DNA from: Octopus vulgaris
Lineage: Eukaryota
Length of the DNA: 64,000 nucleotides
Direction of reading: 5' to 3'
Assembly (NCBI GenBank): GCA_951406725.2
Contig: OX597815.1
Span: forward strand, 127,162,001 to 127,226,000
The notes below the pieces were generated by a model, which did no database searches, was not told the origin of the DNA, and saw nothing but the letters and a program-made list of their open reading frames with translations. Shown one piece after another: positions 16,894 through 57,928 of this stretch (position 1 is the stretch's first letter; every line of letters begins with the position of its first letter). A program made the position numbers and the translations under genes.

Positions 16894-17280
16894 TTCGGAA
16901 TGGTCATATTGCCAGTTTAGCCAATAAAAACACACGCACTATATATTTGGTGTTATTTTGCTTCAGTGATATTTATTTTTTACATTAATCTTAATCTTAT
17001 TTCGGCCAAAGTTCTTTCGTCACACTCCTGTGACCGCATCAGTGGTCCTTTGTTTTCTTCTCACTTACTTGTGTCTCTCCTTACTAACCGTCGTAAGGAG
17101 AGACGCAAGTAAGTGAGAAGAAAACAAAGGACCACTGATCGGTCACAGGAGTGTGACGAAAGAACTTTGGCGAAATAAGATTAAGATTAATGTAAAAAAT
17201 AAATACACTGAAGCAAAATAACACCAAATATATAGTGCGTGTGTTTTTATTGGCTAAACTGGCAATATGACCATTCCGAA
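16894..17280. repeat. Long palindrome (arms 16894-17084 and 17093-17280, 8-nt loop), probably Penelope-type inverted terminus
   Basis: Arms of about 190 bp are reverse complements with about 4 differences; flanked by (AT)n. Confidence 0.9.
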
Positions 17281-17944: not shown

Positions 17945-18573
17945 TTATATATAAAAAACTGACAATGTGTGTCTGTCTGTCTGTGTGTTTCCCTAAAACT
18001 TGAGAACTACACAACCAATTTCATTCAAATTTTACACATGCCTTACTTAGGGTCCGGGGAGTGTCATCAGCAAAAACATTTTGAACTTTTTGCCTAGGGC
18101 GAGCCTACAGCAATATCATATCTTCTCCACTACGATTCCCTAAAACTTGAGAACTACACAACCAATTCCATTCAAATTTTACACATGCCTTACTTAGGGT
18201 CCATGTAGTTTCATGGGCAAAAAAATGTTCAACTTCTTGACTAGAGCGAGCCCATAGCAATATCATATCTTCTCCACTATATCAGTATTACATGTTAAAA
18301 GTGAAACAAAATGTTTCTCTATTTTATGTCAGACACTTTCACTTTAACAATGAAAATAATAATACCAATTGAATTATATGTAGTAAGTAATAATTAAAAT
18401 CAAACTGAAGTATAATATAATCGTAACATAACAAAAGTAAAAATAGCAATTGGTATAAAATTGCATCAATGATTTGAACTTGAATAAGTGGTTTCACATG
18501 AATGGTAATAAATTAAAAATAAAATTAGCGTGCAGAAATGGAATAGTCCAGATGGATAATAAAAAATTAAATT

Positions 18574-18627
18574 AAAGGAAAGACTATTGTCTAGAAAGTA
18601 TACAATGTAGAGAAAAAAGATTTTCAC
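18574..18627 (+). pseudogene. Left half of the split Tx1-like ORF1 (target of the array)
   Basis: Translates KGKTIV*KVYNVEKKDFH and joins in frame to NMAESTFEKCL at 30159. Confidence 0.7.
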
Positions 18628-18851
18628 ACCTGGCTCCAAGCTAATTGCGTTTATTAGTAAGTTTATATATTTTTGCTCTCATAGTATTATCTCTGTTTTC
18701 TATATTGTCTGTCTACCTGTTTTGTTTATTGTTGTTTAACTGAAGAAGTCAGCCTTCGCGCGAGGACTTCGCGTTGGTGTTCCCCCCTCCGTGGGGGAAA
18801 ACTACAATTAATTTGGAAATTCCAAAGGCTTGTTAAAGCCATTTGTTCAAG

Positions 18852-20230
18852 ATGGAGTCCCCCATCTCTTATTCGCCTGTGACGAGCGAGGACGAATACC
18901 CGGCGTTGTCGCCAGGAAAAAAAGAGGCGTTGTCGCCAAGGAAAAAAGAGGCGTTGACGCCTGAAGAAAAAAGAGGCGGCGTCGCCCAAGAAAATAGAAA
19001 AACCAATACCAGCATCAACTCCAGCGAAAAAATTCGCTGAAGTAGCTGGGAAAAAGATTAAAACAATAAATATTGAAAATCTGGAAAAATTTGCAGACAG
19101 TGTAAAGAAAGAGGGCACAGAGGTGACTGTGGTCACAAACATACAGAAACAAGACGATATAGAGAAGAAAAGAATTATATATAAAACCTACAACACAGCA
19201 ACAAGAATGATACAGAAAATCGAGGAAAAAAAATAGAGTTTTGTCTGAAACCGATAATGGACAAAATAACCTACATAAACAGAGGAAAAAGATACGGCAC
19301 AGTGGAGGTGCGTTTTACCACTGAAGAGATGGCGAAAAAACTATCGATGGAGACGATCAAAGCAGAAAACATTGTTTTATTACCATTATATAGAGGAAAG
19401 CGGACGTCAAAAATCACAATGAACAACATACCGCCAGAAGCAGATGCAGAATGTCTGGTGGCAGCAGTGATGGTAGGCCTGGAGGAAAAAATAAACATCC
19501 TCCAGGCCACAGTGGAAGAAGAGGAGTTCTGGAAAGGACAAAAAATAGTGATAGCCATTCAGGCGGAGGCACAAACACTGGAAGAAATTCCAGAAACGGT
19601 AAAAATCAGCGAAGATGAAAAAATAACAGTTTTCGTGGAGGGCAGGAAGCCGAGGTGCTTCGGCTGCGGCAAGAAGGGTCATGTAAGGGCGGAATGCCAA
19701 CCCCAACCCAAACCGCTGGAAGCACCGAAGCCAAGAGAAAAAGAAGAACATGTGTCACCAGAAGCAGCGTCGGACGGCCCAGAAGGGAAGACCGAAGGTG
19801 TGGAGGTGACGGTGACAACAGAACCAGCGGCGGAGGAGAATAAGAGCGAGGATAAGATAAATGAGGAGGGGTGGAAAAAAATTACCGAAAAAAAAGAAGA
19901 AAAACGGAAACCACCCCTCCCAGAATAATTTTAAAAAAGAAAAGAGAGACAATGGACTCATATATGGCCGTAAAGGCAGCAAATAGCAGACTAGGAAACG
20001 TGTTGGCTGCTATGGCCAAAGTGGAGAAAGTGGAAAAGAAAAATGACTTTGTAATCTACAGAATAGGCCGGAAGGATTACGGGCGGATAAAATCCGAATT
20101 CTTCCACGACGTAGGCCCACTTAGATTGGAGGTGACATCTCCACATATATTCGAGGGCCTACGTCAGACTCCCCCACGAGGCCCAGAAAAAGAGTTAGAA
20201 GAACAAGAGAAAACCGAACCACTGATATAA
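18852..20230 (+). pseudogene. Unit 1 ORF1 (gag-like, CFGCGKKGHVRAEC), frameshifted
   Basis: ORFs 18843..19040, 19257..19928 and 19871..20230 are consecutive pieces; the shifts fall in A-runs and may be sequencing errors. Confidence 0.85.
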
Positions 20231-20239
20231 AGGTAAGTA

Positions 20240-23200
20240 ATGGATTGCATTTATGTTGGTTGTTTGAATGTGCGCGGCCTGGGAGCAGGCTGGAAGCAAG
20301 ATCGCTTCCTGCATGATATCAGGTCGCGTAATTTAGATGTTATTGTTGCTACAGAAACCCGGTTAGAGGGGCCAAGAGGTCTGCTCCCGCTGTTTGACGG
20401 CTACGAGAGTTTTTTCTCTCCTGGCAGACCTACTGGCGGAAGTGGGGTGTTGGTCCTAATAAAAAGAAACCGGGTTTCTGAGAAAAAGTTAATTTTTGCA
20501 GATCCAGAAGGCAGGCTGGTCGTCATGGATTTGACGTTCAGTAATGGTAAAGTTATCAGACTGGTTGCAATTTACGCACCCAACCATACAGGGCAAAGTG
20601 ATTATTTTCGTGAACTAGAAAACTTTCTTGGTACTTCGCATTCATTAGTTGTGCTAGGAGACTTTAACACAATTTGCAAAGCAAATGTAGATTGTGTTGG
20701 CTCGCGTCCAGATAGAAAAGGTAACAGTGGCTTCATGGAACTGGTAAGCCGCTTTGAGCTAGCAGATCCTTATAGGCTGGAATTTCCGAACGCTCCATTG
20801 TGGACATGGTCGAACAGCGACGGATCTTCCAGGTCATATTTAGATAGAATACTAATTAGAAAAGTAGACAGTAAAATAGCTAAGTGTCCACAGTTTTACC
20901 CGATCAGCTACAGTGATCATAAAATGGTCACTTGTAAGCTTGACATAGATAAGGTTAAAAATAGAGGATCCGGTTACTGGAAACTTAATACGTCCCTTTT
21001 GGCGATTAAGGAGTACAAAGACCGGATTAGGGACATAATTCTGAGGGCACTGTCTGGTACCATCATTAATAACAAATGGTGGTACGCCCTCAAACGAGCC
21101 ATCAAGTTCGAGTCAATTAGATATAGCATAGGAGTAGTGGCTAGAGAGGCTAGAAGGGAAACTACTCTAGTTAAGGAATTAGAGGAAGCCTTGAAAACTG
21201 GCTCTGCGGCTCAGGTGGCGTCCAAGAGAATGGTGTTAAACCAGCACCTCGAGGCCAAACACATGGGCTGCATTGTCAGGGCTAGAATCCGCCATATGGG
21301 ATGTGAAGGAATCAACGCCGCGAGATGGGCCCGAGTGGTGGAAGCACAGCATGGTAACGATGCCACGATTCGATCTTTGACGAACCAACAAGGTGAGTCG
21401 ATGAACGAACCCGAGGAGATGTGTGAGGCCTTTCAGGAGCACTTCGCTCAGCTTTTCGGTGAGTGCGGCGGACTGGATAGGAGGGGGGCCTTTACGGACC
21501 TACTCGACGGGCTGCCGCGCTTATCGGGGCAAGATGCGGAGGGCTGTGAAGGGCCAATCACGCCTGAGGAGGTGGTTGAGGCAATGGCGGACTGCGGCGC
21601 GGGCAAGGTGCCGGGTTTGGATGGTCTACCCTATGAGTTATATAAGAGTATGCCAGACTTGTTCAGGCACCTACAGGCGGAGGTTTATGCGAACTGGCAG
21701 CAGAACGGGCTTATACCCAGATCTGTACGCCGGGGAGTAGTGACACTCGTCAGAAGGGACCCGAGCAAGGGGGAGTGCATTGATAATTTCAGGCCCATCA
21801 CTCTGCTAAACACAGAGTTGAAGATTTTGGCCAAAGTGTTATCGAAAAGATTGGCGCGTGTCGCGGATGGTCTGATCAGGGAGGCACAGACATGTGCCGT
21901 TCCTGGCAGAACCATTCAGGATAATCTCCATCTTATGCGGTACACTATAGATGGGTTTAATAGTGATTCTGGCCAGGGTGGGGCACTGGTCCATTTAGAC
22001 CAATCTAAAGCTTTTGATAGGGTCGACCATCGTTACCTGGTATCTGCCCTGGCACAGTTCGGGCTGAGCCTTGGCTTCCTCAGGTGGAATATACAAATTT
22101 ACGATAACATCGACTCGGTAGATCGGGTGAACGGCTTCTTGTCGAAGCCGTTCAAAATCAAGCGCTCGGTTCGTCAAGGGTGTCCGCTCTCTCCGCTTTT
22201 GTTTGTGATGGCTCTTGAGCCATTACTGCGAAAACTGAGCGGCATCCCGAGACAGCCAGGTAGTGGAAAATCGGTGTCAGCGTACGCGGATGACATCACC
22301 ATCATTGTAACCGAAATGGACCACCTATGTAAAGTAGGCAAGGCCATAGAGGTTTACGAGACGGTGACAGGAGCAAAAGTTAATCGCGAAAAGTCAGTCG
22401 GCTTGCAACTCGGCACCTGGAGAGGCAAGTCGATGCCTCCTGACAGCGTCGTGGGACGTTGGACGGAGGGTCCGATTAAATTGCTAGGGGTCTGGTTCGG
22501 TCCAGACCTCCAAATAGAGAAGAATTGGGGCGAGGTATCGAGCAGGGTGGCTGCAGAAACCAAGACCTGGTCTTGGCGGTGGCTATCCCTGAAAGGGAGG
22601 GCGGAGGTGGCCAATGTGTTTATCGCATCGGTTATCACCTACCGCCTTTCCGTCGTTCCTTGCCCTGATTCGTGGTTGATCAAGTTGGAAAGACAGCTCT
22701 TCTACTTCTTGTGGAAGGGCGGGAAACCACTTGTGAAACGCTCTACTTGCTGTCAACAACCGTTAAAGGGTGGGCTAGGGATGCCTTGGCTGATGATGCG
22801 CAGACATGCGCTGAGGTTAAGACATCTGTAGCTCTACCTGGATGGGGAACGGGTGAGGTCTCCGCTAGCAAAACTGATGTTTCCCAAGTTCACTAGTTTC
22901 GGTGGATGGGAAACCTGGCTGAATCGTAGATCGAAACTTGGTACTTGGTACACGGAGTGTCGCAAGGCTCTCCTGCTATTCCGTCGCTCGGGCAACGCCT
23001 GCGGTGGGGGTTCCACCACATTCTTCTATAGAGGGTTGGTAGAGGCGGAATGTGAAGATACCTTGGGGGAAACCCTAGGTCTCGACGATAATCAGCTGGC
23101 CAGTCTATTCCGACGTACGTTCAAGCCGAGGACACTGGACAACTTCCAGAAGTCTCTGGCATGGCAATGCTACAGAGGAGCTCTACCTGTTCGGGATAAA

Positions 23201-23635
23201 CTCGCAAGGCATGGTGGCCAAGACAGTCCGATATGTCCAAGATGCGGGCGGGATAGGGAAACGGTCCTGCACGCTATTGTTCATTGTCCGGACGTGTCTG
23301 AGGTGTGGGTTTATGCCGAATAGCTGTTGTCAGGTACACGAAGAGTACAGCTGTCGACTGAGTCGATTACAAAAATTGACCCACCGGATTTCCTCGTGAA
23401 TGAAGGTAAGTTTCGTTTTCTCGTTGTAGTAGCAATTGCGAAAGAGGTGATATGGAAGACGAGAATGAAAGGTCTACAGTCAGGCAAGTTCATCTCCGGC
23501 CCTGGTTTGAGGAATTATTTCATCTTTCACCTGAAAAGGAAGATAGGGCTGGAGAGAATATGCCTGACTAGGAGAGTGTATGAAGAACGATGGGAAGATG
23601 TAGCACGAAAGTTGCGAGTGAATGATACAACATAA
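20240..23635 (+). pseudogene. Unit 1 ORF2 (APE endonuclease, reverse transcriptase, C-terminal zinc finger) with two in-frame TAG stops
   Basis: LNVRGL, ATET, GDFN, YLDRI, SDH; QGCPLSP, YADD; CPRC..ETVLHAIVHC; stops at 22829-22831 and 23321-23323. Confidence 0.92.
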
Positions 23636-23893
23636 ATGTAAGACCAAGCGTAACCAAAAGTAACAGTGGGGAGGCCGGGCTCGTGGGGTCCGAGCTAAAC
23701 CCGCACCCACTCCACCCGTAATGTCTTCCGGTCTGTTACATCATTCGATTTCTGTCCATTTATTGTAATTTCATGAAAATTTTAAAATTCGTTTTATTGT
23801 AAAAACCCATTCGTGTGTCTGACCCCATCATCAGATTGTATTGTCCCATCTATGTTCGCCCCTTGTGGGTAATAATAAAACAACCTGGCGGAA

Positions 23894-25809
23894 CGCAATC
23901 CACGTGTGTATTGAGTTACTTTGTATGTGAAAATTTGGAAAAAACTGTTAAAAAATTGGCAAAAATTGAATCGCGCGAGGCGTTTGCCGCTGCGTGTTTG
24001 AACCTTTTATAGAAGGTGTGTCAACCCGCAAGTCATGGAGAATTACGCGGGGGTCGCCACAACAAAAAGTGACGAGTCTCTTAGAATAAGAGAAGTGTTC
24101 TTTAGAAAAGAACAATTGAAGGAATACGAGAAGTTCGTCAAAAGGGAGGGTGACAGCGTGAAGCTGGTCCCGCCTGTTGAAACAATAGAGGAGAAAAATA
24201 ACAAGACGATAACGTATAGAACGCAAGATAGAAACACGAGAAAACTGGTGAGAGTGACGATTGAAGAAATAGAGAAATGTCTGGGGGACATCATGAAAAA
24301 AGCGACTTTTGTAGACAGAGGAAAGAAATATGGTACGGTGGAGGTGAGATGCGCAACAAAGGAAGTGGCGGCCTCATTGGCTTCCACTGTCCTGAAAGCC
24401 GAAAATTTCACTATGTGGCCGACGTATAAAGGAAGACGAGGGGTACGGGTAAGAGTCCCAAAGGTGCCCCCAGATATTAAAACAGAAATGCTGGTAACAG
24501 CCATTATTGGGGCAGCAAAGGAGGAAGTTGAAATAGGGTCAATCATGGAGACGAACGTTGTAAATTGGAAGGGATTCGGAGTAGAGCTGTGGCTGATGGC
24601 CACAATGGAAGACATCGAAAGGTTTCCCTTCCAAATAGAAATAGAAAACGAGAAAACAATTAGTGTAATAGTGGAAGGCAGAAAACCGAATTGCTACCTG
24701 TGCGGATCAAGAGGGCACATAAAAAAGGAATGTCCGCTGTATGAATTCACAGCGGAGCAAAAAGAGACACAAAGTGGAGAGAAGGAAAACGAACACGAAG
24801 GAAAGAACAGCGAAAACAAGGAAAAGGAAATAACGGAGAAACAACAAGAGAAGGGAAGTAACAGCGCACTGAAGGAAAATGAAAACAAAGGGAAGAAGAG
24901 AGTAGAAAAGGAGCAAAATTCACAGGGTGCAGAAGTAGTGGAGAAGGAGCCAAGGCAGAAGCAAGAGAAAGAAAAGGAAAGTACATTAAAGGAAAGAGAA
25001 AAAGCAGGAAAAGAACAAGAGAAGGAACAGAACCAAGAGAAAGGAAAATATGGTATGCAAAAAGGAAAAGAAACAACAGGAAAGGAACATAAGGCACAGG
25101 GTAGAGAGACGGCAGACAAAGAGCCAAAAAGACAAGAGAAGGAAAAAGAAAGAAGAGAAAGCAAAAAGAGAGAAAGAGAGAAACCGAGGGAGGAGAAAAA
25201 AGAGGAAGTAAGTCCTAAGAGAAAAACTAGAGAAAACGTAGGTACGAATAGAAAATTCAAATACTATGGAACGTTGATCCATCACAGGCACTGTGAGGAG
25301 ATGGAAGATTTAATAAACGTAACAAATGGATATACGTGTGTCAGGATGGGCACCGAATGGAAAGAAACAGGTGCACTCGTCCACGAGAACGACGCTGAGG
25401 CGTTCATCGAGGCAGCTGGCAAGAACGTGACAAAACATATGAAATGCCGACTTACAAGGTGGCCACGAACGATGGAAATTTACCAAGATTTGGTAGAGAT
25501 AATGGAGTATATATAAAAGAAAAGGTATTGTGAAAACTTTAATTTGGAAATGATAAGAAGAACTTAAAATTCTGAAAAAAAAAAAATGTTGAACTTTGTA
25601 AAATTTTTGAAATGTATGTTGAAAATGTGTAAAATGTTTTTATTTGGAAGATATTGTTGACGAATAAAAAACAAATGACGAAATGTAACCGCTCGATTTC
25701 GGGGATCGAGTGGGCATTACACCACATTGTACAAACTTCATAATTCATTATTCATTTTTCCCGATTGTATTGTCCCCTCTATGTTGGCCCCTTGTGGGTA
25801 ATAATAAAA
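23894..25809 (+). mobile_element. ORF1-only non-autonomous Tx1-related element, unit 2
   Basis: 5' end resembles unit 3; single ORF; last 47 bp match units 1 and 3 at 45/47; no RT. Confidence 0.88.
24035..25516 (+). CDS. Intact 493-aa Tx1-type ORF1 protein (conserved N-terminal block, CCHC knuckle, long K/E-rich region)
   Basis: RGKKYGTVEVR and VEGRKPNCYLCGSRGHIKKEC align with unit 1/3 ORF1; uninterrupted frame. Confidence 0.85.
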   Translation: MENYAGVATTKSDESLRIREVFFRKEQLKEYEKFVKREGDSVKLVPPVETIEEKNNKTITYRTQDRNTRKLVRVTIEEIEKCLGDIMKKATFVDRGKKYGTVEVRCATKEVAASLASTVLKAENFTMWPTYKGRRGVRVRVPKVPPDIKTEMLVTAIIGAAKEEVEIGSIMETNVVNWKGFGVELWLMATMEDIERFPFQIEIENEKTISVIVEGRKPNCYLCGSRGHIKKECPLYEFTAEQKETQSGEKENEHEGKNSENKEKEITEKQQEKGSNSALKENENKGKKRVEKEQNSQGAEVVEKEPRQKQEKEKESTLKEREKAGKEQEKEQNQEKGKYGMQKGKETTGKEHKAQGRETADKEPKRQEKEKERRESKKREREKPREEKKEEVSPKRKTRENVGTNRKFKYYGTLIHHRHCEEMEDLINVTNGYTCVRMGTEWKETGALVHENDAEAFIEAAGKNVTKHMKCRLTRWPRTMEIYQDLVEIMEYI

Positions 25810-26036
25810 CAACATGGCGGAACGCAAATCGCGTGTGTAGTGAGTTTTTACAATTTTCCTTAGTGTATATTTTCTACGTTATATTATACTGTGTGTCTAT
25901 TTGTCTTTGTTTATTGCTGTACATCTGTTGAAGTCAGCCTTCGTGCGAGGACTTCGTGGTGGTGTTCCCCCCTCCGTGGGGGAAAAATATCAGTTATCTT
26001 GGATTTACCAAGGGCTTGTTAAGCCAGTTGTTCGAG

Positions 26037-27351
26037 ATGGAATCCCCAATCTCATATTCTCCCGTGACTAGTGAAGAAGAATCTCCGGCGGTGTCGCCAA
26101 AGAAAAAAGAGGCGGTGTCGCCAAAGAAAAAGAGGCGGTGGCGCCAAAGAAAAAAACCCCTGCACCAGCACCAGCACCAGCGAAAAAATTCTCAGAAGTA
26201 GCTGCTAAGAAAATTTAAAAAATAAACGTCGAAGACTTAAAGAAATATGCGGACTGTGTTACAAAAGAGGGCACGGAAGTGACAGTGGTCACAAACGCCC
26301 AAAAACATGAAGAAATCGAAAAAAGAAGAATAATCTATAAGACCTTTAATACGACAACCAAAATGATACAAAAAATTGAGGAAAAAAAATCGAGAATTGT
26401 TTAAAACCATTAATGGACAAGATCACATACATCAACAGAGGAAAGAGATACGGCACAGTAGAGGTGCGTTTCACAACAGAGGAGATACCTAAAAAACTGT
26501 CTATGGAGCCAAAAAATGCAGAGAACATTGTTCTCCTCCCCTCGTATAGAGGAAAAAGAACATCAAAAATCACGATGAATAACATTCCGCCAGAGGTAGA
26601 TGCCGAATGTCTGGTGGCAGCAGTCATGGTAGGCCTGGAGGAAAAAATAAACATCCTCCAGGCCACAGTAGAGGAGGAGGAATTCTGGAAAGGGCAGCGG
26701 ATAGTAATAGACATTCAGGCAGAAATTCAAACACTGGAGGAGATTCCAGAAACTCTAAAAATAAGTGAAGAAGATAGAGTAACAGTTTTCGTAGAGGGCA
26801 GAAACCCGAGGTGCTTCGGCTGCGGCAAGAAGGGTCATGTAAGGGCGGAATGCCAACCCCAACCCAAACCGCAGGAAGCACCTCAGCCAGGTGGAAAAGA
26901 AGATGAAGTGTCACCAGAAGCAGCGCCGGGCGGCCCAGAAGGGACGACTGAAAGTGTGGAAGTGACAGAGGCAGCAGAACCAGCGGCAGAGGAAAAAAAG
27001 AGCAATGAGGAGGGGTGGTCAAAAATCACCAGGAAAAAAAGAAAAACGGAAACCACCCCTCCAAGAGTGATCCAAAAGAAGAAAAGAGAGTCGATGAACT
27101 CATATATGGCCGTTAAGGCATCAAACAACAGACTCGGGAACGTGTTGGCAGCTATGGACAAAGTGGAAAAAATAGGAAAAATGAATGACTATATAGTTTA
27201 CAGAATAGGCCGGAAGGATTACGGGCGGATAAAGTCCGAATTCTTTCATGACGTAGGCCCGCTCAGAATGGATTTAACATCTCCATATATATTCGAGGGC
27301 CTACGTCAGACTCCCCCACGAGTCCCAGAAAAAGAGATAAACAAAGAATAA
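26037..27351 (+). pseudogene. Unit 3 ORF1
   Basis: MESPISYSPVTSE start; ORF 26413..27351 with CCHC knuckle; frameshifts and stop upstream. Confidence 0.85.
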
Positions 27352-27387
27352 AAAGAAAAAACCGAACCACTGATATAAAGGTAAGTA

Positions 27388-29917
27388 ATGGATTACATTT
27401 ATGTTGGTTGTTTGAATGTGCGCGGCCTAGGAGCAAGCTGGAAGCAAAGTCGCTTCCTGCATGATATCAGGTCGCGTAATTTAGATGTAATTGTTGCTAC
27501 AGAAACCCGGTTAGAGGGACCAAGAGGTCTACTCCCGCTGTTTGACGGCTACGAGAGTTTTTTGTCTCCTGGCAGTCCTACTGGCGGGAGTGGGGTGTTG
27601 GTCCTAATAAAAAGAAACCGGGCCCGAGTGGTGGAAGCTCAGCATGGTAACGATGCCACGATTCGATCTATGACGAACCAACAAGGTGAGTTGATAAACG
27701 AGCCCGAGGAGATGTGTGAGGCCTTTCAGGAGCACTTCGCTCAGCTTTTCGGTGAGTGCGGCGGACTGGATAGGAGGAGGGCCTTTAGGGACCTACTCGA
27801 CGGGCTGCCGCGCTTATCGCGGCGAGATGCGGAGGGCTGTGAAGGGCCAATCACGCCTGAGAAGGTGGTTGAGGCAATGGCGGACTGCGGCGCGGGCAAG
27901 GCGCCGGGTTTGGATGGTCTACCCTATGAGTTATCTAAGAGTATGCCAGACTTGTTCGGGCACCTACTGGCGGAGGTCTATGCGAACTGGCAGCAGAACG
28001 GGCTTATACCCTGATCTGTGCGCCGGGGAGTAGTGACACTCGTCAGAAGGGACCCGAGCAAGGGGGAGTGCATTGATAATTTCAGGCCCATCACTCTGCT
28101 AAACACAGAGTTGAAGATTTTGTCCAAAGTGTTATCGAAAAGATTGGCGCGTGTCGCGGATGGTCTGATCGGGGAGGCACAGACATGTGCTGTTCCTGGC
28201 AGAACCATTCAGGATAATCTCCTTCTTATGCGGTACACTATAGAGGGGTTTAATAGTGATTCTGGCCAGGGTGGGGCACTGGTCCATTTAGACCAATCTA
28301 AAGCTTTTGATAGGGTCGACCATCGTTACCTGGTATCTGCCCTGGCACAGTTCGGGCTGAGCCTTGGCTTCCTCAGGTGGAATATACAAATTTACGATAA
28401 CATCGACTCGGTAGATCGGGTGAACGGCTTCTTGTCGAAGCCGTTCAAAATCAAGCGCTCGGTTCGTCAAGGGTGTCCGCTCTCTCCGCTTTTGTTTGTG
28501 ATGGCTCTTGAGCCATTACTGCGAAAACTGAGCGGCATCCCGAGACATCCAGGTAGTGGAAAATCGGTGTCAGCGTACGCGGATGACATCACCATCATTG
28601 TAACCGAAATGGACCACCTATGTAAAGTAGGCAAGGCCATAGAGGTTTACGAGACGGTGACAGGAGCAAAAGTTAATCGCGAAAAGTCAGTCGGCTTGCA
28701 ACTCGGCACCTGGAGAGGCAAGTCGATGCCTCCTGACAGCGTCGTGGGACGTTGGACGGAGGGTCCGATTAAATTGCTAGGGGTCTGGTTCGGTCCAGAC
28801 CTCCAAATAGAGAAGAATTGGGGCGAGGTATCGAGCAGGGTGGCTGCAGAAACCAAGACCTAGTCTTGGCGGTGGCTATCCCTGAAAGGGAGGGCGGAGG
28901 TGGCCAATGTGTTTATCGCATCGGTTATCACCTACCGCCTTTCCGTCGTTCCTTGCCCTGATTCGTGGTTGATCAAGTTGGAAAGACAGCTCTTCTACTT
29001 CTTGTGGAAGGGCGGGAAACCACTTGTGAAACGCTCTACTTGCTGTCAACAACCGTTAAAGGGTGGGCTAGGGATGCCTTGGCTGATGATGCGCAGACAT
29101 GCGCTGAGGTTAAGACATCTGTAGCTCTACCTGGATGGGGAACGGGTGAGGTCTCCGCTAGCAAAACTGATGTTTCCCAAGTTCACTAGTTTCGGTGGAT
29201 GGGAAACCTGGCTGAATCGTAGATCGAAACTTGGTACTTGGTACACGGAGTGTCGCAAGGCTCTCCTGCTATTCCGTCGCTCGGGCAACGCCTGCGGTGG
29301 GGGTTCCACCACATTCTTCTATAGAGGGTTGGTAGAGGCGGAATGTGAAGATACCTTGGGGGAAACCCTAGGTCTCGACGATAATCAGCTGGCCAGTCTG
29401 TTCCGACGTACGTTCAAGCCGAAGACACTGGACAACTTCCAGAAGTCTCTGGCATGGCAATGCTCTACCTGTTCGGGATAAACTCGCAAGGCACAGTGGC
29501 CAAGACAGCCCGATATGTCCAAGATGCGGGCGGGATAGGGAAACCGTCCCGCACGCTATTGTTCATTGTCCGGACGTGTCTGAGGTGTGGGTTTATGCCG
29601 AACAGCTGTTGTCAAGTACACGAAGAGTACAGCTGTCGACTGAGTCGATTACAAAAATTGACCCACCGGATTTCCTCGTGAATGAAGGTAAGTTTCGTTT
29701 TCTCGTTGTAGTAGCAATTGCGAAAGAGGTGATATGGAAGACGAGAATGAAAGGTTTACAGTCAGGCAAGTTCATCTCCGGCCCTGGTTTGAGGAATTAT
29801 TTCATCTTTCACCTGAAAAGGAAGATAGGGCTGGAGAGAATATGCCTGACTAGGAGAGTGTATGAAGAACGATGGAAAAATGTAGCACGAAAGTTGCGAA
29901 TGGATGTTACCACATAA
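27388..29917 (+). pseudogene. Unit 3 ORF2, endonuclease-deleted, multiple stops
   Basis: Stops at 28012, 28861 and 29122; 11-bp deletion near 29463; YADD retained. Confidence 0.9.
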
Positions 29918-30157
29918 ATGTAAAACCAGACGAAACCAAAGTATCAGTGGGGAGGCGGGGCTCGTGGGGTCCGAGCTAAACCCACTCCCACTCCATCCGT
30001 AATGTCTTCCGGTCTGTTCTCCATTCGATTTTTTATATTTTGTAATTTTTTGTAAATTTTTTAAATTCGCTTTGTTGTAAAACCCATTCGTGTATCTGAC
30101 CCCATCATCAGATTGTATTGTCCCATCTATGTTCGCCCCTTGTGGGTAATAATAAAA

Positions 30158-30475
30158 CAACATGGCGGAAAGCACCTTCGAAAAGTGTCTTGGTGCGACC
30201 ATGAAAGGTATCTATTCAGAGGCGGTAAATTCGCCACAATAGAAGCAAGGTTTGAGTCAACGGAGTGTGCAAGGGAGTACTCGACTCAAACTTGCAAAGT
30301 GGGAATATTTTATTTTTACCTTTATATCTGAGACATAGGACATCCCGGAAAAAAATTTTTAATGCCACCCCCCCCGCCCGAAGTAGAGGTAGGCTGGATT
30401 GTAGCCACACTTCTATACAAGAGGGAGGACAAGATACAATTGATCGAAATTACAAGAGACGGGCTAACAAATCCA
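30158..30475 (+). pseudogene. Right half of the split Tx1-like ORF1
   Basis: NMAESTFEKCLGATMK / RGGKFATIEARF / NILFLPLYLRHRTS / PEVEVGWIVATLL align with ORF1 of units 1-3. Confidence 0.8.
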
Positions 30476-30748
30476 GTCTGTTATATATTTTGAGTATTGT
30501 TATCACTAGCGATATCAGGATATAACTTTGTATTTTGTATTTTATGTGTAGATGTATATATATAGATGTACATGTAATATGTACACATATATATACACAT
30601 ATATACATGCACTAGCACTATGACCCGGCAACGACGGGTCTTTAATGCTAGTATATATATATAAAGGTATTTTTTTACTTCTATAACAATTGACTATGAC
30701 ACCTTCCTATACAATCTGATTAACCATACTTATAATATCTTATGCAGT

Positions 30749-39559: not shown

Positions 39560-42050
39560 CATATTCTGAAACTGTTTTCAACATCCAGTAATCTGAAGTT
39601 TTAAGGTATTGTTTGAGCCCAACATTTGATATTTTGCACAGCAGCTCAAGCGCGATCATTCCTCTAACTCTACTTCATCCAGAGAAATAAAGGTGATCCA
39701 CATCTGATTTTGAGTGATCTAATTTATTATAGGTCAAAATTTTTCCAACTTTTTAGTCCATTTTCATTATTGTTCCATTTTATGATATTGCAATCATAGG
39801 TGATAACTGGGATTGTAAGGGTATTCATAGCAGATATACATTTCATTCTTTGAGTTGAGCTCTGTTTTTAAGACAGCGCATACTCTCCTGTAGCGTTCCT
39901 TTTGATTGTTTCTTTCATGCTAGCATAATGAATACTTTAGCCTTCATTGACGTCTTTTAGGTTTGATCTTGTTCCATAATTACTACACCCACATCTTTAT
40001 CCATTAGATATGTGCTTGTCATTCTGCCTTTCACACATTTTTCCAGCCCAAACTCCACTCCTGCTTCATCACTGAACACCTTAACTCTCTTTAACAGTCT
40101 TACCAACATGTCATTTTCGGCATGCATTTTCAAATCATCCACAAAAGACAGATGGTTTGTAGGTTTTGCCATCTATTTTGTAGCCATTTTTTGTTGAGAT
40201 CTAGTATTAGTGGTCTGAGTGCAATTCAAAATATGAAAAGAGACAAAGAATTTCCTTGAAAAATACCACAGTTAATGCTTAGGCTGCAGGAATTTATATT
40301 AACATTTGTAGTGTATGACAAGGTTAGATGTGTATTCTATACATACATGTATTTCAGGAGTTTGATATTACTGGGAAAATCCTCAGAACATCCAAAGTTT
40401 TCAAAATTCATGAATGGGGGACACAATCAAATGCACTTTTTGATAATAAATCCAAGTAGTTCTCAAACTTATGTTCTTGTTATGATAGTTTAATTAGAAG
40501 TTGGTCTTCATAGCTATAAGACCCACAGTGGCAACCTTTCTGCTCAGCAGGGAAATGAATTTTGTTCATAAATTTATACATCGTCTCAGTCAAAATTGAG
40601 GTGAGCATTTTGTATGAAGTGGAGAAGCAGGCGATGGTATGATCATTTCTGAGAATATTTGTTTCTGTTGATTTTGGCAATACATATGTTACAACTTGTA
40701 CAATCCAATCAGGAGTTTATTCAGAGTTGTGGAAAATTTCATTATAAAATTTTAGCAGTATATAATGGGTAGTAGTTAGAAAAGATAACCAGAAGTTTGG
40801 CACTTTCTAATGACAAGAGATTTCTATTTGTTGGCTTTTTATAGTGCTAAGACAAGCTCTTCTATAGTTATGTCTTTCCAAGTCCTCCTCTCTAAATTAT
40901 GGACCATTTCTACTATGTTCTTTATCCATTCTCCATTCTCATCATGGGAATTTTCTGTACTCCATATTGTGTTCCAAAATTTATCAATCTCATGAATTGA
41001 AGGAGGTTCCTTTATTTAAATTGCCTGTGTCTCAATTTCCAGGTAAAAACGTCTTTTGCATCTAACATAAACAACTTTTGCCTTTAAAATTTATTTCATG
41101 TATCAAATCTGATTATTTGAGCTTTCAGCAGTACTTATTGTTTCAGGGTTTCTTTGGTTGGTAGAGAATCATATTTTGAAGTTACTTTGTATTTCTTAAT
41201 CACATTCCATCCTTATCTTGACTCGACAGATGTCCCAACATATATTTAATTCAAGGTCAATATTTCTTCACTCATCATTTCAAATTTTTCTCAACTTTTA
41301 TCTTCCAGGGTGGGAGTTTTTGTGAGTGCTGTGTTCTTTTTGCCTTTTCATTGACACACATTTCCTTTATATTACCATTACTGTGGCATATATAACTTCA
41401 TTCAGTTCTGATACATCAGGCTCCATCTCTTCAATTATTGCTTTAACAGCCTGATTTCCAATTCTTATATGTCCTGGGATTGTTGGGATTGCTTGTCAGT
41501 TTTTGCAATGACTTTCTTTCATTCATACTAATGTTTTTTACTTTTCCAAGTTCATTGAGAAATTTCTTGTTAGGGTTAGGATTAAGTTTAGGGTTAGGGC
41601 TTGGATTAGGGTTAGGGTTAGGGTTCTCGCCAATCTTAAAGCTCATGGCTAAAAATATCTTCATCCATATTGTTAATATATCTTTCAACTTAAACTTGCT
41701 CTGTGGTATTTCTGATATTTTCATTTTTTTTTTTTGTGCAATTTCTTCTGGTGACAACTTGGTCATGAAGTTTTAAGGTTTCTCTACTGTCATGTATTCA
41801 TTTTCATCCTTCCTTCGTGTTTATATTTTCAAATCTTTCCAACTTTCCTCTTGATTTCATTTAATTCTGCATCTGTTAGTCATTTGTTTCTAAGAATGTC
41901 TCTTATATTTGTAAGTTTGTTTTCATCTATGTTTGGTCTAATGTCTAGATTTCTTTCTCTCCATACCTTAAAAGAATTTACCATGTATTTGGATTCAGAT
42001 GATTTGCCCAATGAGCAATAGAATGTATATATCACTTACTTGTAAGTTTC
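39560..42050 (-). mobile_element. Old R4/Dong-like LINE, heavily degraded
   Basis: HLSFVDDLKM, FGLEKC and EQKGC motifs; homology to 50833-54000. Confidence 0.75.
41570..41625 (+). repeat. Interstitial telomeric-type repeat, about 9 TTAGGG units (6 perfect)
   Basis: Read directly from the sequence. Confidence 0.85.
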
Positions 42051-48153: not shown

Positions 48154-50787
48154 TGGAACCACATAAGAGGCCCAGGTGGCAGAGGTGCAACAAGGCAACA
48201 AAGCCACAATTCGGTCTCTGGTAGGTGAACAGGGGCATGAATTACTCAAGCCAAGTAAAATGTGTGAGGCTTTTCAACAGAATTTTGCCCAACAGTTCGG
48301 GACGAGTGGCAGGAGAGAACGCAGGGTGGACTTCAGTACCTACATACATAGCCTGCCATGACCCTTGACAAGAGAGGCAGGGCACTGCGAAGGTGCCATC
48401 ATGGCGGCGGAAGTGCGGGACACGATGGCAGATTGCTCGAGGGACAAATCGCCAGGTTTGGATGGTCTATCCTATGAGCTTTACAGTTGTATGCCAGACT
48501 TGTTTGGAGATTTCTTGGCAGTGGTTTACTGCAACGCGCAGCAAAACGGGAGCATCCCTGGTTTTGTGAGCCGAGGAGCCATAACACTGCTGAAGAAAGA
48601 TCTAAACAAAGGGGACGTAATAGATAACTTTAGGCCCATCACTCTACTTAATGCAGACTTGAAAATTTTGGTCAAGGTGTTAGCCAAGAGGTTGGCCTTG
48701 TCATCGAGAAACTCGACAACAAGGCACAAAAGTGCGCCGTGCCAGGACGCATCATCCATGACAACTGATGTGCTACATCATATACAAGGTAGTTAAGGAA
48801 CCTGGCACGGGTAGGGCCCAGATCAATTTGGAACAATTGAAAGCTTTCAAAAGGGTAGACCATCAATATTTGGAGGCTGTCCTCAAAGAGGCTGGTTTTG
48901 GACCCGTCTTCTGCAGCTGGATAGCTGCTTTGTACAGAGGCATTCATTCAGTAATTTGCATAAATGGACATCTATCGAAACCTTTTGACATTGCACATTC
49001 GGTCCGTCAGGGATGCCCCCCCTCTCATCGCTTCTATACGTATTGACTCTGGTGACTCTGAGGGGCATCCTGCGAGAATTGGGATGCGGGACGAGCATGT
49101 CTGCATACGTGGACGATGTCACCATCATAGTGTCTAGCCACAAGCACATCGAGCTGGTCGGTGAGACACTGAAAGACTACAAAGTGGTAAAGGAGCAATA
49201 ATCATCCGAGAAAAGTTAGTGAGCTTGCAGCTCGGTACATGGAGAACCAAGCCCATGCCGTCCACCAGCGCCTCCATCATAGGACACTGGATTGACGGTC
49301 CGGTCGAGTTGCTCGAGGTCTGGTTTGTTCCGGACCTCCAAATGGAGAAGAACTGGAACAAGATAATGAGTAGGGTGGTCACTCTCACCTGATAATGGGC
49401 CGAGAGGAAACTGTCTCTAAAAGGTTGTGCAGAGGTGGCAAACACATACATCGCACCCATCATCTACTACTGCCTGACCGTCATGCCTTGTCCCGACCCT
49501 ACCATCACCAAACTAGAACGCATTCTCTTCTGCTTCTTGTGGAAAAGATGCATCCCGATGGTCAGGCAATCCATTTGTTGTCAACACCCATTAAAAGGAG
49601 GGCTGGGCATGCCGTGGTTGATAATGCACAGACACGCGCTGAGACTGCGACACCCCCGGCTCTACATAGACGATGGTGAACAGGTGTGGTCACCGTTTGT
49701 GAGGCACGCTTTCCCGCAGCTCATCTCCATGTCCAAACTGCAGTCGTGGATCAAAAAGAGGCCGAGGAAGGGCGAATGGCACCACAAGTATCGCATTGCT
49801 CTCAAGCAACTATGCCATCCCGGGTCGATCTTGAGCGACTTCAATACAACCAAAGCATTCTATTAGTGAAGGGGAGGTACGACGATGATCTCAGGGCAAA
49901 CCTGGGCGTCAACAAGGAATACCTGACCTGCCTGTTCAAGACGACTTTTGGGCTAGGACCTATGGACAACTTCCAGAGATCCCTGGCCTGTCAGTGCTAC
50001 TGAAAAGCACTACCCGTTCGGGACAAGCTCTACAGACATGGCTCGAGAAACACGGGGCCAACCTGCCCGAGATGCGGTCAGAGCGATGAAACCATTCTGC
50101 ACGCACTCGTGCAGTGTCCAACCATTTCCGACCTGTGAACTTATGTCGAATGACTGCTGTCACGTGTGGGATGAGTCAGTTTATCAGCCAAGTCTATCAT
50201 CAATATCATCACGCCTCCTTCCTTCAAATGGGAAGGAAGAGCTATTTTCATCATACTTGTGACTATAGCGAAACAATGTATCTGGTGGATGTGTCTGAAA
50301 GGATTAGAGACAAGCACTTTCCTCTCTGGTCAATCTCTCATCAACTTCTTCAAGTATCACTTGAAAAGGAAAGTGAGAGTAGAGAGGCAAGTTTTGTCTA
50401 GTGAATGTTTCAAAAAAAGATGGGTGAATGTAGCAAGGATGACACGTATGAATGATGAAGCCACCTTGAGCATAATCCTATGAACCCAGGAAAATTTAAA
50501 ACAGAGATTTACTTACTTGCAAATAAATGTGTTAATATGTGACATTATTGACCAAGGTTAACATGGTCTTTTCCATAGGCTTTTCTTTCCATGGATAAAC
50601 CTTATCTGTTTCTCCCTTTACACTTTACATCATGATATTTCTGTGATACATGATACTTATTGATCGTTTTTTTTATGATCCCTTTTGGTCAAAAACCTAC
50701 CCCCATTTTTTTTCTCCCCAAAAAGAAAAGCTCTACTTTGTATTTTGTCCCCTCTGTGTTCAGCCCTGTGTGGCTAATAAAGAAACA
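48154..50787 (+). mobile_element. Older Tx1-clade element, 5'-truncated, inserted in (TTA)n
   Basis: FRPITLLN, YVDD, GGLGMPWL motifs; 3' tail similar to array units; (TTA)n on both sides. Confidence 0.88.
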
Positions 50788-54329: not shown

Positions 54330-56170
54330 CTGAGCAGAGCGGTTAGGTGGGACTTTTCCACTTTTAGGGTGAATTTTCAGTTTAAAATCTCTAATTTTTC
54401 ATTTTTCGATTTTTAAAATTTGTAAAAATAGCCTTGGAGAAGAGTGTCTGCTCTTCCTTTCTTTTTGACTTCCTCCCTCTGTTGTTGGAAGACAGACAAA
54501 AGATGTAAATATTAACTGACTCTGCCCACTCCATGCCTAAAAAGGCAGAGAGAGGGAAGACCAAAGTTTTGCTAGCATGTGCAACATTGAGCATCAGAAG
54601 GAAAAAGAAGAAAAGAAATGAGAAAAAAAGGGGAAAAGAGCAAGGAAATTCAGGTAATGGATGCTACTAGAGTCGCAACATCTGTGAATCCAAGCGCTCC
54701 CACTACCACCACTAACTCTAAGACATTGAACACCCAACAACAACAACAGTAACCCAATGCATTAAACAGCCAAGGTTTCCCAGTTCAATAGTAAAACCAA
54801 GCAATGAATTTATAAATATTTCAGTAGAACCTCTCACAGAAACATTTAAAAAAGAAAAAGCAAAAGAAGCATTTTGATAAACACACCATCAGAGAAAATG
54901 AACAAACATGCCATAGTGTACAAAACTATATCATTAAAAAATAGATGTATAGAAACTGCCAGAAAGCAAACAGTTGAAAAATGCTTGCAACCCATTTGAA
55001 AAGACGTAACTTATCTGGTGAGAAGTAAGAAATATGACACGACTGAAGTCAGATTTGCTACAGAAGGCATAGCAAAACAGCATTCAACAGCCCGACTGAG
55101 AAACAGTGAACTTATCCTAGTTCCAACATACTTGGGACAGAGTGTCACCAAGATAAAAATACTGGAGATACTATCAGAAATGAATGTTTGCTGAATTGTC
55201 ATGGCTGTCCTTCTTGACTAGGAGGATAAAATCAGAATTATCCAAGTCAAGAAATAATGAAAAAGCAACAGGACTGGTCAGAAATTTCAAATAATGATCT
55301 AAATAAACCAAGACATTTTGAAACAAATTGCTGATCAACTCAGCCTTGTAGATGGCACTATGCTGAACGTCACTGTTGAGGACAGAAGGCCAAGATGCTA
55401 TCAATGTGGACAAAATAACCACCTGAAAGCCTTTTGCCCATGACTAAAACAGAAGGAGTACACTACCCCCTTGATACAAGCACCACTCACACCACAAACA
55501 ACTGAAGCAACCCCAACTACAGAGGCAACCCCAAGAAAAGAAAGCAGAGAGGTCTCCAGCAAAAACACCAACAGCAAATACTACATGAGAGACAACAACG
55601 CCAACAAAAGCAGAGGTGTTGACCACAATCACTACAACAGTAGCTACAAAACACCAACAACACAGGTCTTGCCAGAGGAACAAAAATCACCAGCAAATTT
55701 CAACTTCAACAAATTTTATATTTCCCCAAAGAGTTGATTTCAAGTAGATTCTAAGAGCATATTTGATACCATTATGGATACCATCATGGAAGACATTAGA
55801 ATAAATATCAAATCAAAGTTAAACTCACCTGGCCAGCAGGCTGAAATTGAAACAAATAAACATTTATAAGAATAGTGAATAACAGGAATAATACAAAAGA
55901 CATTTTTTAAGATGAGAAGATATTTTAAGACAATGAAACTCAGAGGTGTGCATTAAAAGAGTTGGTTTTCAGGCAGTTATGAATATTATTTGCTACAACA
56001 ACTTATTTAATAAGACAAAACTAAATCTGTTTTTAACTTATAAGGCCTAAATAAAATTGAAAAAAACTTTGAGAAACCTTCATGACAGCTTTTGTAACAT
56101 GTTATTACCAGACATTTGACAAGTAACCCAAAAGATCTAGTTATCAATTAAAAAATTATACTAATAATAA
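54330..56170 (+). mobile_element. Degraded Tx1-type ORF1 element without a following ORF2
   Basis: AIVYKT..VEKCLQPI*KDVTYLVRSKKYDTTEVRF (54910-55060) and RPRCYQCGQNNHLKAFC (55387-55437); boundaries approximate. Confidence 0.65.
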
Positions 56171-57432: not shown

Positions 57433-57928
57433 CTGCAAAAAAAAGCAAAATATTAAGAAAATATAATTCAGCAAATATTTTTTTCATTAGTTTTCATATC
57501 AATTCATTCTATGATAAAGATGACGTATTTCAGAAAACAATTCCCCCCTACTACTGCTACTACTACTACTACAACCAACGGTCTCTGCTACTACTGCTAT
57601 TATGAACAACGGTCACTTTCACGATTACAGCCAACAGTAATACGATTGTAGTCAACGCACAAGACAGCCATTATGCTCCCGCCCACCCACAAAACACCAT
57701 CACGTGGACTCTGTTGAGACTAGTAAGAAACACTTATGAACTTTTTTATTACACTTAACTTTTTAACATATTTTTGATAAGGTTTGTGTTTTCAAGAAGA
57801 ACTGAAACATGTAAAATCTATAAGAAAATTAAAATTTATCTTATATAGTGGCATTTTCAAACTTTTATAAATATAAACCCACTTGTATGCCACCTACACT
57901 TTTTATAAATATATATATTTATATATAT

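Follow-up and report, generated by a model that had tools for sequence, protein, structure and literature searches.

An ORF1-only element amplified as its own family in a mixed head-to-tail array with two-ORF L1/Tx1-type elements in Octopus vulgaris

Within a 64-kb window of Octopus vulgaris contig OX597815.1 (the whole stretch of DNA analysed; all positions are window coordinates), a 1.9-kb non-LTR (LTR, long terminal repeat) element with a single open reading frame (ORF), ORF1, lies between two elements of L1/Tx1 type that carry both ORF1 and ORF2. This locus raises the question of whether the element, designated unit 2, is a deletion product or a copy of a family that exists as an ORF1-only form. 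An original prediction, made from the sequence letters, favored a long-lived lineage resembling mammalian HAL1 that borrows the reverse transcriptase (RT) and target site of its neighbors and keeps its own ORF1 under selection. Unit 2 was found to encode ORF1 and no ORF2, to have a 3' end in common with its two-ORF neighbors, designated units 1 and 3, and to have been amplified as a family of its own, designated family A. The features of unit 2 are as follows.

23883..25811, + strand: unit 2, ORF1-only non-LTR element of family A, 1929 bp
23883..23917, + strand: shared 5' head, 30/36 against the unit 3 head; its first 11-15 bases are the putative target motif
24035..25516, + strand: ORF1, 493 amino acids (aa), open; ATG at 24035, stop ending at 25516
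24173..24682, + strand: two predicted RRM-fold domains, aa 47-134 and 135-216 (AlphaFold2, Foldseek, VIA-align)
24689..24736, + strand: CCHC zinc knuckle, aa 219-234 (Pfam PF00098, 24.7 bits, above cut-off)
24743..25246, + strand: K/E-rich low-complexity linker, aa 237-404; model confidence mostly low
25247..25513, + strand: small C-terminal domain, aa 405-493, common to a sister family, B (hhalign A versus B 97%, 38% identity)
25689..25713, + strand: 11-bp hairpin within the 295-nt 3' untranslated region (UTR); segment also in another repeat
25763..25811, + strand: shared 3' tail, 49 bp, putative RT recognition signal, without poly(A); 47/49 against unit 1, 95.9% against unit 3

The original prediction had set the element at 23894-25809. 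These bounds were corrected to 23883-25811, and the 11-13 bases that had been left between units proved to be the head. The revised bounds were adopted because a distant relative within the window has a tail that terminates on identical letters, and the head was taken to start at 23883 because unit 1, which has no tail before it, begins with a homologous head at 18628. The claimed tail match of 45/47 held against unit 1 and unit 3 alike, and similarity dropped sharply upstream of the tail, where the adjoining 47 bases matched at 13/47. The first 25 nt resembled unit 3, as had been noticed, at 20/25 when counted from 23894 and at 30/36 from the true start; past the head, similarity to unit 3 ended sharply (11/40 over the next 40 bases). 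ORF1 was unbroken from ATG to stop, with zero internal stops, and a tblastn search with nine ORF2 queries found no ORF2 remnant in the unit (best E 0.22), both as originally described.

Copies of unit 2 were sought in sequencing runs; among the 24 listed, 18 (from 11 studies among 20 holders) contained at least half of the unit 2 words. Contigs of four of the listed runs (X1, X3, X16 and X17, with three organism labels) were aligned to 22800-26400; the contig evidence given here is that among the matches listed, which comprise 32 of 1770 pieces, 24 of 373 loose ends and 15 of 20 joints. Family A contigs were present in all four runs, and in three of them the ORF1 stop (25516) was crossed into the same 3' UTR by at least 58 bases. 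An X1 contig (25397-25812) ran from stop to tail in one piece, an X3 contig (25126-25752) bridged the stop, and an X16 contig of 1638 bases (23939-25574) held the whole of ORF1; an X17 contig that ended 30 bases past the stop was not counted as bridging. Because ORF2 of unit 1 begins 10 bases past its ORF1 stop, at least 58 bases of matching UTR indicated that family A, in its commonest form, lacks ORF2 there. Bridging contigs were about as deep as the ORF body (19 versus 29, 71 versus 64 and 23 versus 23; depth does not equal copy number), and no ORF2-linked family A copy was seen among the matches listed. In addition, two O. vulgaris gene models on different contigs, P0006 and P0007, were 98-100% identical to unit 2 in the N-terminal match and not identical to it overall. 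The bridging contigs and the two near-identical models indicated that unit 2 is not a single-copy deletion, in agreement with the original prediction, and a multicopy ORF1-only family A is well supported. The window copy differed from the longest run contigs by 1.2-1.9%, so the copies of family A are young.

The same copies bear on the notion that unit 2 is an ORF1 gene in single copy that was domesticated, in the manner of ZCCHC3 or L1TD1, and lies between two elements by chance. The open ORF would suit such a gene, and a language-model search listed a ZCCHC3-domain cluster (score 0.89, a lead only); however, the element ends are intact, there are no introns, several near-identical copies lie on different contigs and the changes private to unit 2 look neutral, and we regard domestication as extremely improbable.

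Two segments near the 3' end were also found outside family A. The 3' UTR stretch 25679-25722, which includes the 11-bp hairpin, was present in an X16 repeat (depth 15) that differs on both sides, with loose ends at 25679 and 25722. The tail core, 25765-25804, was matched by another repeat with different flanks, for which the summed contig depth was ~13,000-104,000 in the four runs and no copy was found in the window; the depth of the unit 2 ORF in the same runs was tens to hundreds. We take this abundant repeat to be, probably, a short interspersed nuclear element (SINE) that uses the same tail. Neither the wider region of the hairpin (z 0.17) nor the tail and junctions (seven stretches, z -1.44 to 1.91) folded better than shuffled sequences.

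The ORF1 of unit 2 was only distantly similar to those of its neighbors, as originally reported: it was 38.7% and 35.4% identical to the ORF1 of units 1 and 3, over the N-terminal 155-175 aa only, and the DNA of these ORFs had merely 35-49-bp patches of ~80% identity in common. All relatives with a species name were octopus gene models. The ORF1 of sister family B, for which many open models were found, was 62% identical to that of family A overall; its 26 members formed four clusters, some of them chimeric or derived from a neighboring ORF. The O. bimaculoides model P0040 was 46% identical to unit 2 ORF1 over 300 residues. A profile search returned 905 clusters at E ≤0.001, and some of the top matches were unrelated zinc-knuckle repeats. 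In a midpoint-rooted tree of 43 rows, picked for long coverage of the N-terminal domain so that most of the 150 listed HMMER matches, being fragments, were excluded, families A and B, P0040 and four more rows formed a branch with 100/100 support, apart from five autonomous-type rows. The exclusion of the autonomous-type rows from this branch indicated that unit 2 ORF1 is not derived from the ORF1 of its neighbors, and the family A ORF1 lineage is old and separate from that of units 1 and 3. Scans of metagenomes and viruses gave 0 matches, apart from two chance 17-mers without blastn support and one 25-aa match at E 3e-4. An 89-aa multicopy O. vulgaris gene model (P0022-P0032, P0005) was repeatedly spliced onto the ORF1 of family B or of a family C; this model could represent the C-terminal end of a further ORF1 family located just upstream in arrays.

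Identity between families A and B was graded by domain, with 35/48 in the first RRM (RRM1), 58/82 in RRM2, 19/20 in the knuckle and 32/87 in the C-domain. This gradation would fit constraint on the lineage and gives no date for the loss of ORF2. An AlphaFold2 model built from a 59-row alignment had a predicted local distance difference test (pLDDT) score of 85-97 over aa 21-240, and its best Foldseek matches were tandem-RRM proteins (E 2e-5). With VIA-align, aa 47-134 superposed on the La RRM (Z 9.5, root-mean-square deviation 2.4, 82 aligned), and a second RRM-like fold was found at aa 133-217 (Z up to 8.0). Structure prediction, which had been proposed as a check on both termini, thus gave an N-terminal RRM-RRM module at high confidence, but it left the C-domain at a pLDDT of 45.8. 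The K/E-rich stretch, first put at about 170 aa, spans 168 aa with 48% K+E. A Pfam scan of unit 2 ORF1 found zf-CCHC and no L1 ORF1 family. The protein is therefore predicted to consist of RRM-RRM-CCHC, a linker and a small C-domain. The C-terminus had been called distinct, and it is so with respect to the autonomous-type ORF1 (hhalign probability <1%) but not with respect to family B (97%); homology to the C-domain of the autonomous-type ORF1, considered early on, was unsupported by the same hhalign comparison. A fold search with the C-domain gave no usable Atlas match, and its best structural Z of 3.9, mostly to ferredoxin-like folds, was not meaningful. The ORF1 proteins of long interspersed nuclear elements (LINEs) are generally RNA-binding and chaperone-like. 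From the predicted folds and this precedent, we infer a similar role for unit 2 ORF1.

The claim of a long-lived HAL1-like lineage stood in part. The multicopy ORF1-only form, the old and separate ORF1, and the shared ends and insertion site support it, whereas its remaining parts, an old ORF2-less state and selection on ORF1, are putative. For the former, sister family B and the O. bimaculoides relatives were seen without DNA context. Consecutive accessions were considered as a sign that family B is without ORF2, and this was rejected when the control, autonomous-type ORF1 models, also proved consecutive. For the latter, the 11 listed coding differences between unit 2 and the run contigs comprised 8 non-synonymous and 3 synonymous changes. 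In simulations, ORF1 stayed open in 60%, 50%, 28% and 15% of trials after 8, 11, 20 and 30 substitutions; with an ORF this likely to survive 8-11 substitutions by chance (50-60% of trials), the intactness of unit 2 is no proof of selection. The statement that this is the only undamaged ORF is true of the array, but it carries little weight, since the contrast may be due to slippage or to assembly error. The four ORF1 frame switches inspected in units 1 and 3 were all at or beside A-runs, one of them at the same run in both, and the longest A-run in unit 2 ORF1 is shorter than 7; the openness of unit 2 is weak evidence for this reason. The ORF2 stops and the deletion in unit 3 are not damage of the A-run type.

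A rival explanation is a young deletion derivative, in which family A has, or recently had, an ORF2-bearing parent with the same ends, and the ORF1 lineage is old rather than the loss of ORF2. The youth of the copies suits this explanation, as does the 3' region of ORF2, which in each of the four runs has much greater depth than both ORF1 types; that depth would fit several ORF1 types with similar ORF2s, or 5' truncation. Another repeat carries part of the 3' UTR, and repeated independent loss of ORF2 has been described in Drosophila telomeric elements (PMC13534243). However, neither ORF2 letters nor a UTR like that of units 1 and 3 lie between the ORF1 stop and the tail of unit 2, no loose end or joint was found at the ORF1 stop among the matches listed, and no named octopus ORF1-ORF2 fusion was present in 20 ORF2 matches (474-1511 aa), the last being a weak point. 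We consider a young derivative quite unlikely.

The array in which unit 2 lies, and the site that it occupies, are composed of the following features.

18571..18627, + strand: left flank, 5' half of an older interrupted ORF1, 57 bases; rank 5 of 127,900 six-frame windows
18628..23882, + strand: unit 1, full-length two-ORF L1/Tx1-type element; ORF1 18852-20230 frameshifted; ORF2 20240-23635, with stops at 22829 and 23321
25812..30159, + strand: unit 3, two-ORF element; ORF1 frameshifted; ORF2 with stops and a ~850-bp internal deletion at 27622
30160..30472, + strand: right flank, 3' continuation of the older ORF1 (hidden Markov model (HMM) E 8e-16); its first 15 bases agree with the unit 3 head at 14/15

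Units 1-3 form an 11.5-kb block inside an older decayed ORF1 of another family. The original prediction had missed this setting, the head-like site and the wider occurrence of the tail. The left flank alone was weak by HMM (E 0.061), and only four known ORF1 copies scored higher than its 18.4 (13.9 for the next window below it). The register across the array was 36 + 20 = 56 bases versus 57 expected, with 57 in 8 of the 10 relatives compared, and the insertion of the three units cost the host sequence no more than one base net. The segment 30160-30472 had been considered as a fourth, 5'-truncated unit; this was rejected because the left flank was found to be the half that lies upstream of it. 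The old remnant is cut off by the sequence at 30473-30500, which also follows a tail in one X16 contig and could represent either a second target or another family's head.

The host 15-mer directly after the array matched the unit 3 head at 14/15, which has a chance of 1.7e-8 per site; ~96 such 14/15 sites are expected in a 2.8-Gb genome. The target motif was found after all three tails, and in one of the three it is host sequence. The first 31 bases of an X3 family A contig belong to the tail of an upstream element, so family A copies elsewhere also sit behind a tail (X3, one of the four runs by a 31-base rule for bridging from tail to head). Further along the window, a distant Tx1-type copy (48165-50787) is 5'-truncated, decayed and 64% identical to units 1 and 3 in ORF2, with a homologous tail at ~50737-50787, and lies between (TTA)n tracts; it appears to be a sister family that targets the (TTA)n microsatellite. 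The persistence of the tail in this 64%-identical copy between (TTA)n tracts indicates that the tail belongs to the element and that the downstream sequence is the target. The comparison points to the tail as an old group-wide signal, and to a target after the tail that differs between families. For the elements of the array, the target is likely their own 5' motif. At this single locus, and with exceptions noted below, an 11-15-base motif follows each of the array tails, which suggests a partner with a target-sequence preference.

Alternatively, the target could lie outside the elements, in the host or another transposon, and be duplicated at each insertion, so that arrays form via the duplicated site and the heads are captured target. 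Tandem insertions of SINEU-3/Tx1-Mar in crocodilians sandwich a target duplication (PMC4494074), the first 7 bases of unit 1 are those of unit 2 and could be such a duplication, and the site here lies within another Tx1-type ORF1. However, the head similarity spans 35 bases, well beyond the 15 in common with the host site; the unit 1 head aligns position by position with the unit 3 head although no tail precedes unit 1; and ORF1 families differ in amino acids at the host site, which is thus probably a chance mimic. Nor did an Rfam family or a tRNA match the junction; Rfam gave 30 weak hits in all, every one below the gathering score, and ARAGORN found 0 genes, so that neither offered an RNA gene as the target. 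We consider an outside target somewhat unlikely; it would alter the origin of the target only and is compatible with unit 2 as an ORF1-only element.

The partner ORF2 contains an APE endonuclease (PF03372), an RT (PF00078) and a C-terminal zinc-binding domain (PF13966), a set that is also present in other L1-group elements and alone is not diagnostic of Tx1. Among solved structures it was closest to human L1 ORF2p (E 1e-61), in a comparison without a Jockey reference. The assignment of units 1 and 3 to the Tx1 clade rests on architecture and on general features of the clade; the 20 ORF2 matches listed included no named Tx1 reference. The two units are mosaic relative to one another, with ~82% identity in the 5' UTR and ORF1 and 95-97% from the start of ORF2 (96.8% over the 3' 2.57 kb), and they have an ORF2 stop in common (22829/29122). 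This mosaic is read as ORF1 swapping or gene conversion within arrays. The ~850-bp ORF2 deletion in unit 3 has a 3-base microhomology at its joint.

The array could also be a product of DNA-level tandem duplication or unequal exchange, with unit 2 a passive piece copied along with its neighbors, or an assembly artefact. The close match of units 1 and 3 over their 3' 2.57 kb and their common ORF2 stop suggest conversion or a common dead template. Yet the 5' parts of these units are only 82% identical, unit 2 is unrelated to its neighbors between its ends, the junctions fall at the same base three times, and independent runs carry unit 2 as separate contigs, all of which make this origin very unlikely.

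We consider it probable that unit 2 is a copy of an ORF1-only family moved by the borrowed endonuclease and RT of its partner, which cuts before a motif in the elements' own head. We infer trans-mobilization, the promoter and the endonuclease specificity in this scheme. Family A RNA would be transcribed from a promoter situated in or at the head and packaged by its own ORF1 protein, with two RRMs and a zinc knuckle. The ORF2 protein of the unit 1/3 family would bind the tail of the ORF1-only RNA in trans and carry out target-primed reverse transcription just before the motif. Each full-length insertion would add a new head and with it a new target, and mixed head-to-tail chains could grow in this way from a chance seed site, away from telomeres. 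Family A would keep ORF1 because packaging is likely needed in cis. The head motif may double as a promoter element and so be hard to lose; we take it to resemble the 5'-terminal YY1 site of mammalian L1 elements.

A broader proposal is more tentative, and we hold it to be possible rather than probable. One L1/Tx1-type RT, with the group's own 5' end as its target, would serve several ancient ORF1-only lineages and a SINE-like repeat, as an interstitial counterpart of HeT-A/TART. The lineages would be tens of millions of years old, with ends kept compatible with the enzyme of the day as ORF1 diverged, and each insertion would seed the next. The ancient lineages meant are A, B and relatives older than the split of O. 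vulgaris and O. bimaculoides, and the SINE-like repeat is about a thousand times deeper in the runs.

Several observations weigh against the movement of family A by a partner that targets its own head. Both two-ORF neighbors are dead here, and no intact donor was seen. The private changes of unit 2 look neutral. None of the 24 listed runs that hold unit 2 is recorded as RNA, and X3 is RNA by conjecture only. Contigs drop rare variants, so that a low-copy parent with ORF2 may exist. The consecutive accessions of family B are uninformative on ORF2, and no O. vulgaris ORF2 model was present among 20 matches. The target is deduced from a single pre-insertion site, and the 31-base rule found tail-to-head bridging in one of the four runs for unit 2 and in 0/4 for unit 3 (19 and 25 bases). 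One X17 joint and one X16 loose end have a tail followed by motif-free sequence, which indicates that targeting is not absolute. Finally, one X16 contig carries the 3' UTR hairpin with differing sequence on either side.

Other features of the window were recorded. An old decayed ORF1 of the same superfamily lies at 54877-55485 (HMM E 5e-62), and the 2.3 kb that follow have no ORF2 match or tail. An 835-codon open frame at 57877-60384, weakly like the unit 1 RT (23%), belongs to another, unrelated retroelement that is largely open. A long near-perfect inverted repeat at 17038-17139, with many sub-threshold Rfam miRNA matches, is probably a small transposon or palindrome. A degenerate interstitial TTAGGG-like tract of 9.5 copies (78% matches) lies at 41569-41625.

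For octopus annotation, the results mean that dozens of "uncharacterised" gene models are these ORF1s. The ORF1 of the partner is ~35% alike, which makes it testable why ORF1 is kept in cis and whether a foreign ORF1 works with a borrowed ORF2. A target in the elements' own 5' end, if true, would explain non-telomeric head-to-tail arrays as a self-renewing safe haven, and it gives a defined endonuclease target of 11-15 bases.

HAL1 elements encode ORF1p only, are non-autonomous and arose several times (PMC5753468). In the guinea pig, HAL1 coding capacity was kept for ~29-44 Myr, which has been read as a need for ORF1p in cis, with ORF2p acting in trans (PMC3627910, with reference to Bao and Jurka 2010). 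Unit 2 is likewise non-autonomous and encodes ORF1 only. In contrast, HAL1 derives from mammalian L1, whereas the ORF1 of unit 2 is RRM-RRM-CCHC and has no L1 ORF1 Pfam match; unit 2 also differs in having no poly(A), a partner whose ORF1 is 35-38% alike, a specific site, and a place in mixed tandem arrays.

HeT-A and similar elements of Drosophila are ORF1-only and form same-direction head-to-tail arrays with autonomous partners (PMC5537684), and Drosophila ORF1-only lineages can spawn new ORF1-only families (PMC13534243). Unit 2 is similar to HeT-A in that it lies in a head-to-tail array mixed with two-ORF partners. The unit 2 array, however, is interstitial: an older ORF1 encloses it, one half on either side, and other sequence extends for >18 kb and >33 kb beyond. 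HeT-A belongs to the Jockey clade, whereas the partner ORF2 of unit 2 is nearest to L1 among the solved structures, a comparison that included no Jockey reference. In addition, the 3' UTR of unit 2 is short (295 nt), and its arrays likely arise through a sequence target, not by end addition.

Many Tx1 families (Tx1L, Keno, Kibi, Koshi, and Tx1-Mar with SINEU) prefer a target, including transposons and microsatellites, and tandem insertions occur (PMC4494074). The partner of unit 2 resembles these target-specific families in its APE endonuclease, RT and zf-RVT, and its distant relative in the window lies in (TTA)n. The named targets of these families are external, whereas here the target matches the elements' own 5' end. 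A 2026 repeat annotation of O. vulgaris lists 80 L1-Tx1 families, 13 of them recently active, and its text makes no mention of ORF1 or HAL1 (PMC13282606). No ORF1-only Tx1 element, and no example from octopus, turned up in our literature search; the 2026 annotation library and Repbase, both outside its scope, may hold the family. In Kojima 2018, the list of non-autonomous LINEs with ORF1 comprises HeT-A (Jockey), HAL1 (L1) and Ag-Sponge (CR1), with no Tx1 form (PMC5786205). A Tx1-type setting would thus be the fourth for ORF1-only LINEs, after Jockey, L1 and CR1. The array also recalls Zepp of Chlorella, described as a LINE in nested clusters, which differs in being autonomous, in an alga and in a telomeric region. 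Zepp reportedly inserts into earlier Zepp copies, and we know of no ORF1-only partner for it. Family A works like HAL1 and HeT-A and is a member of neither.

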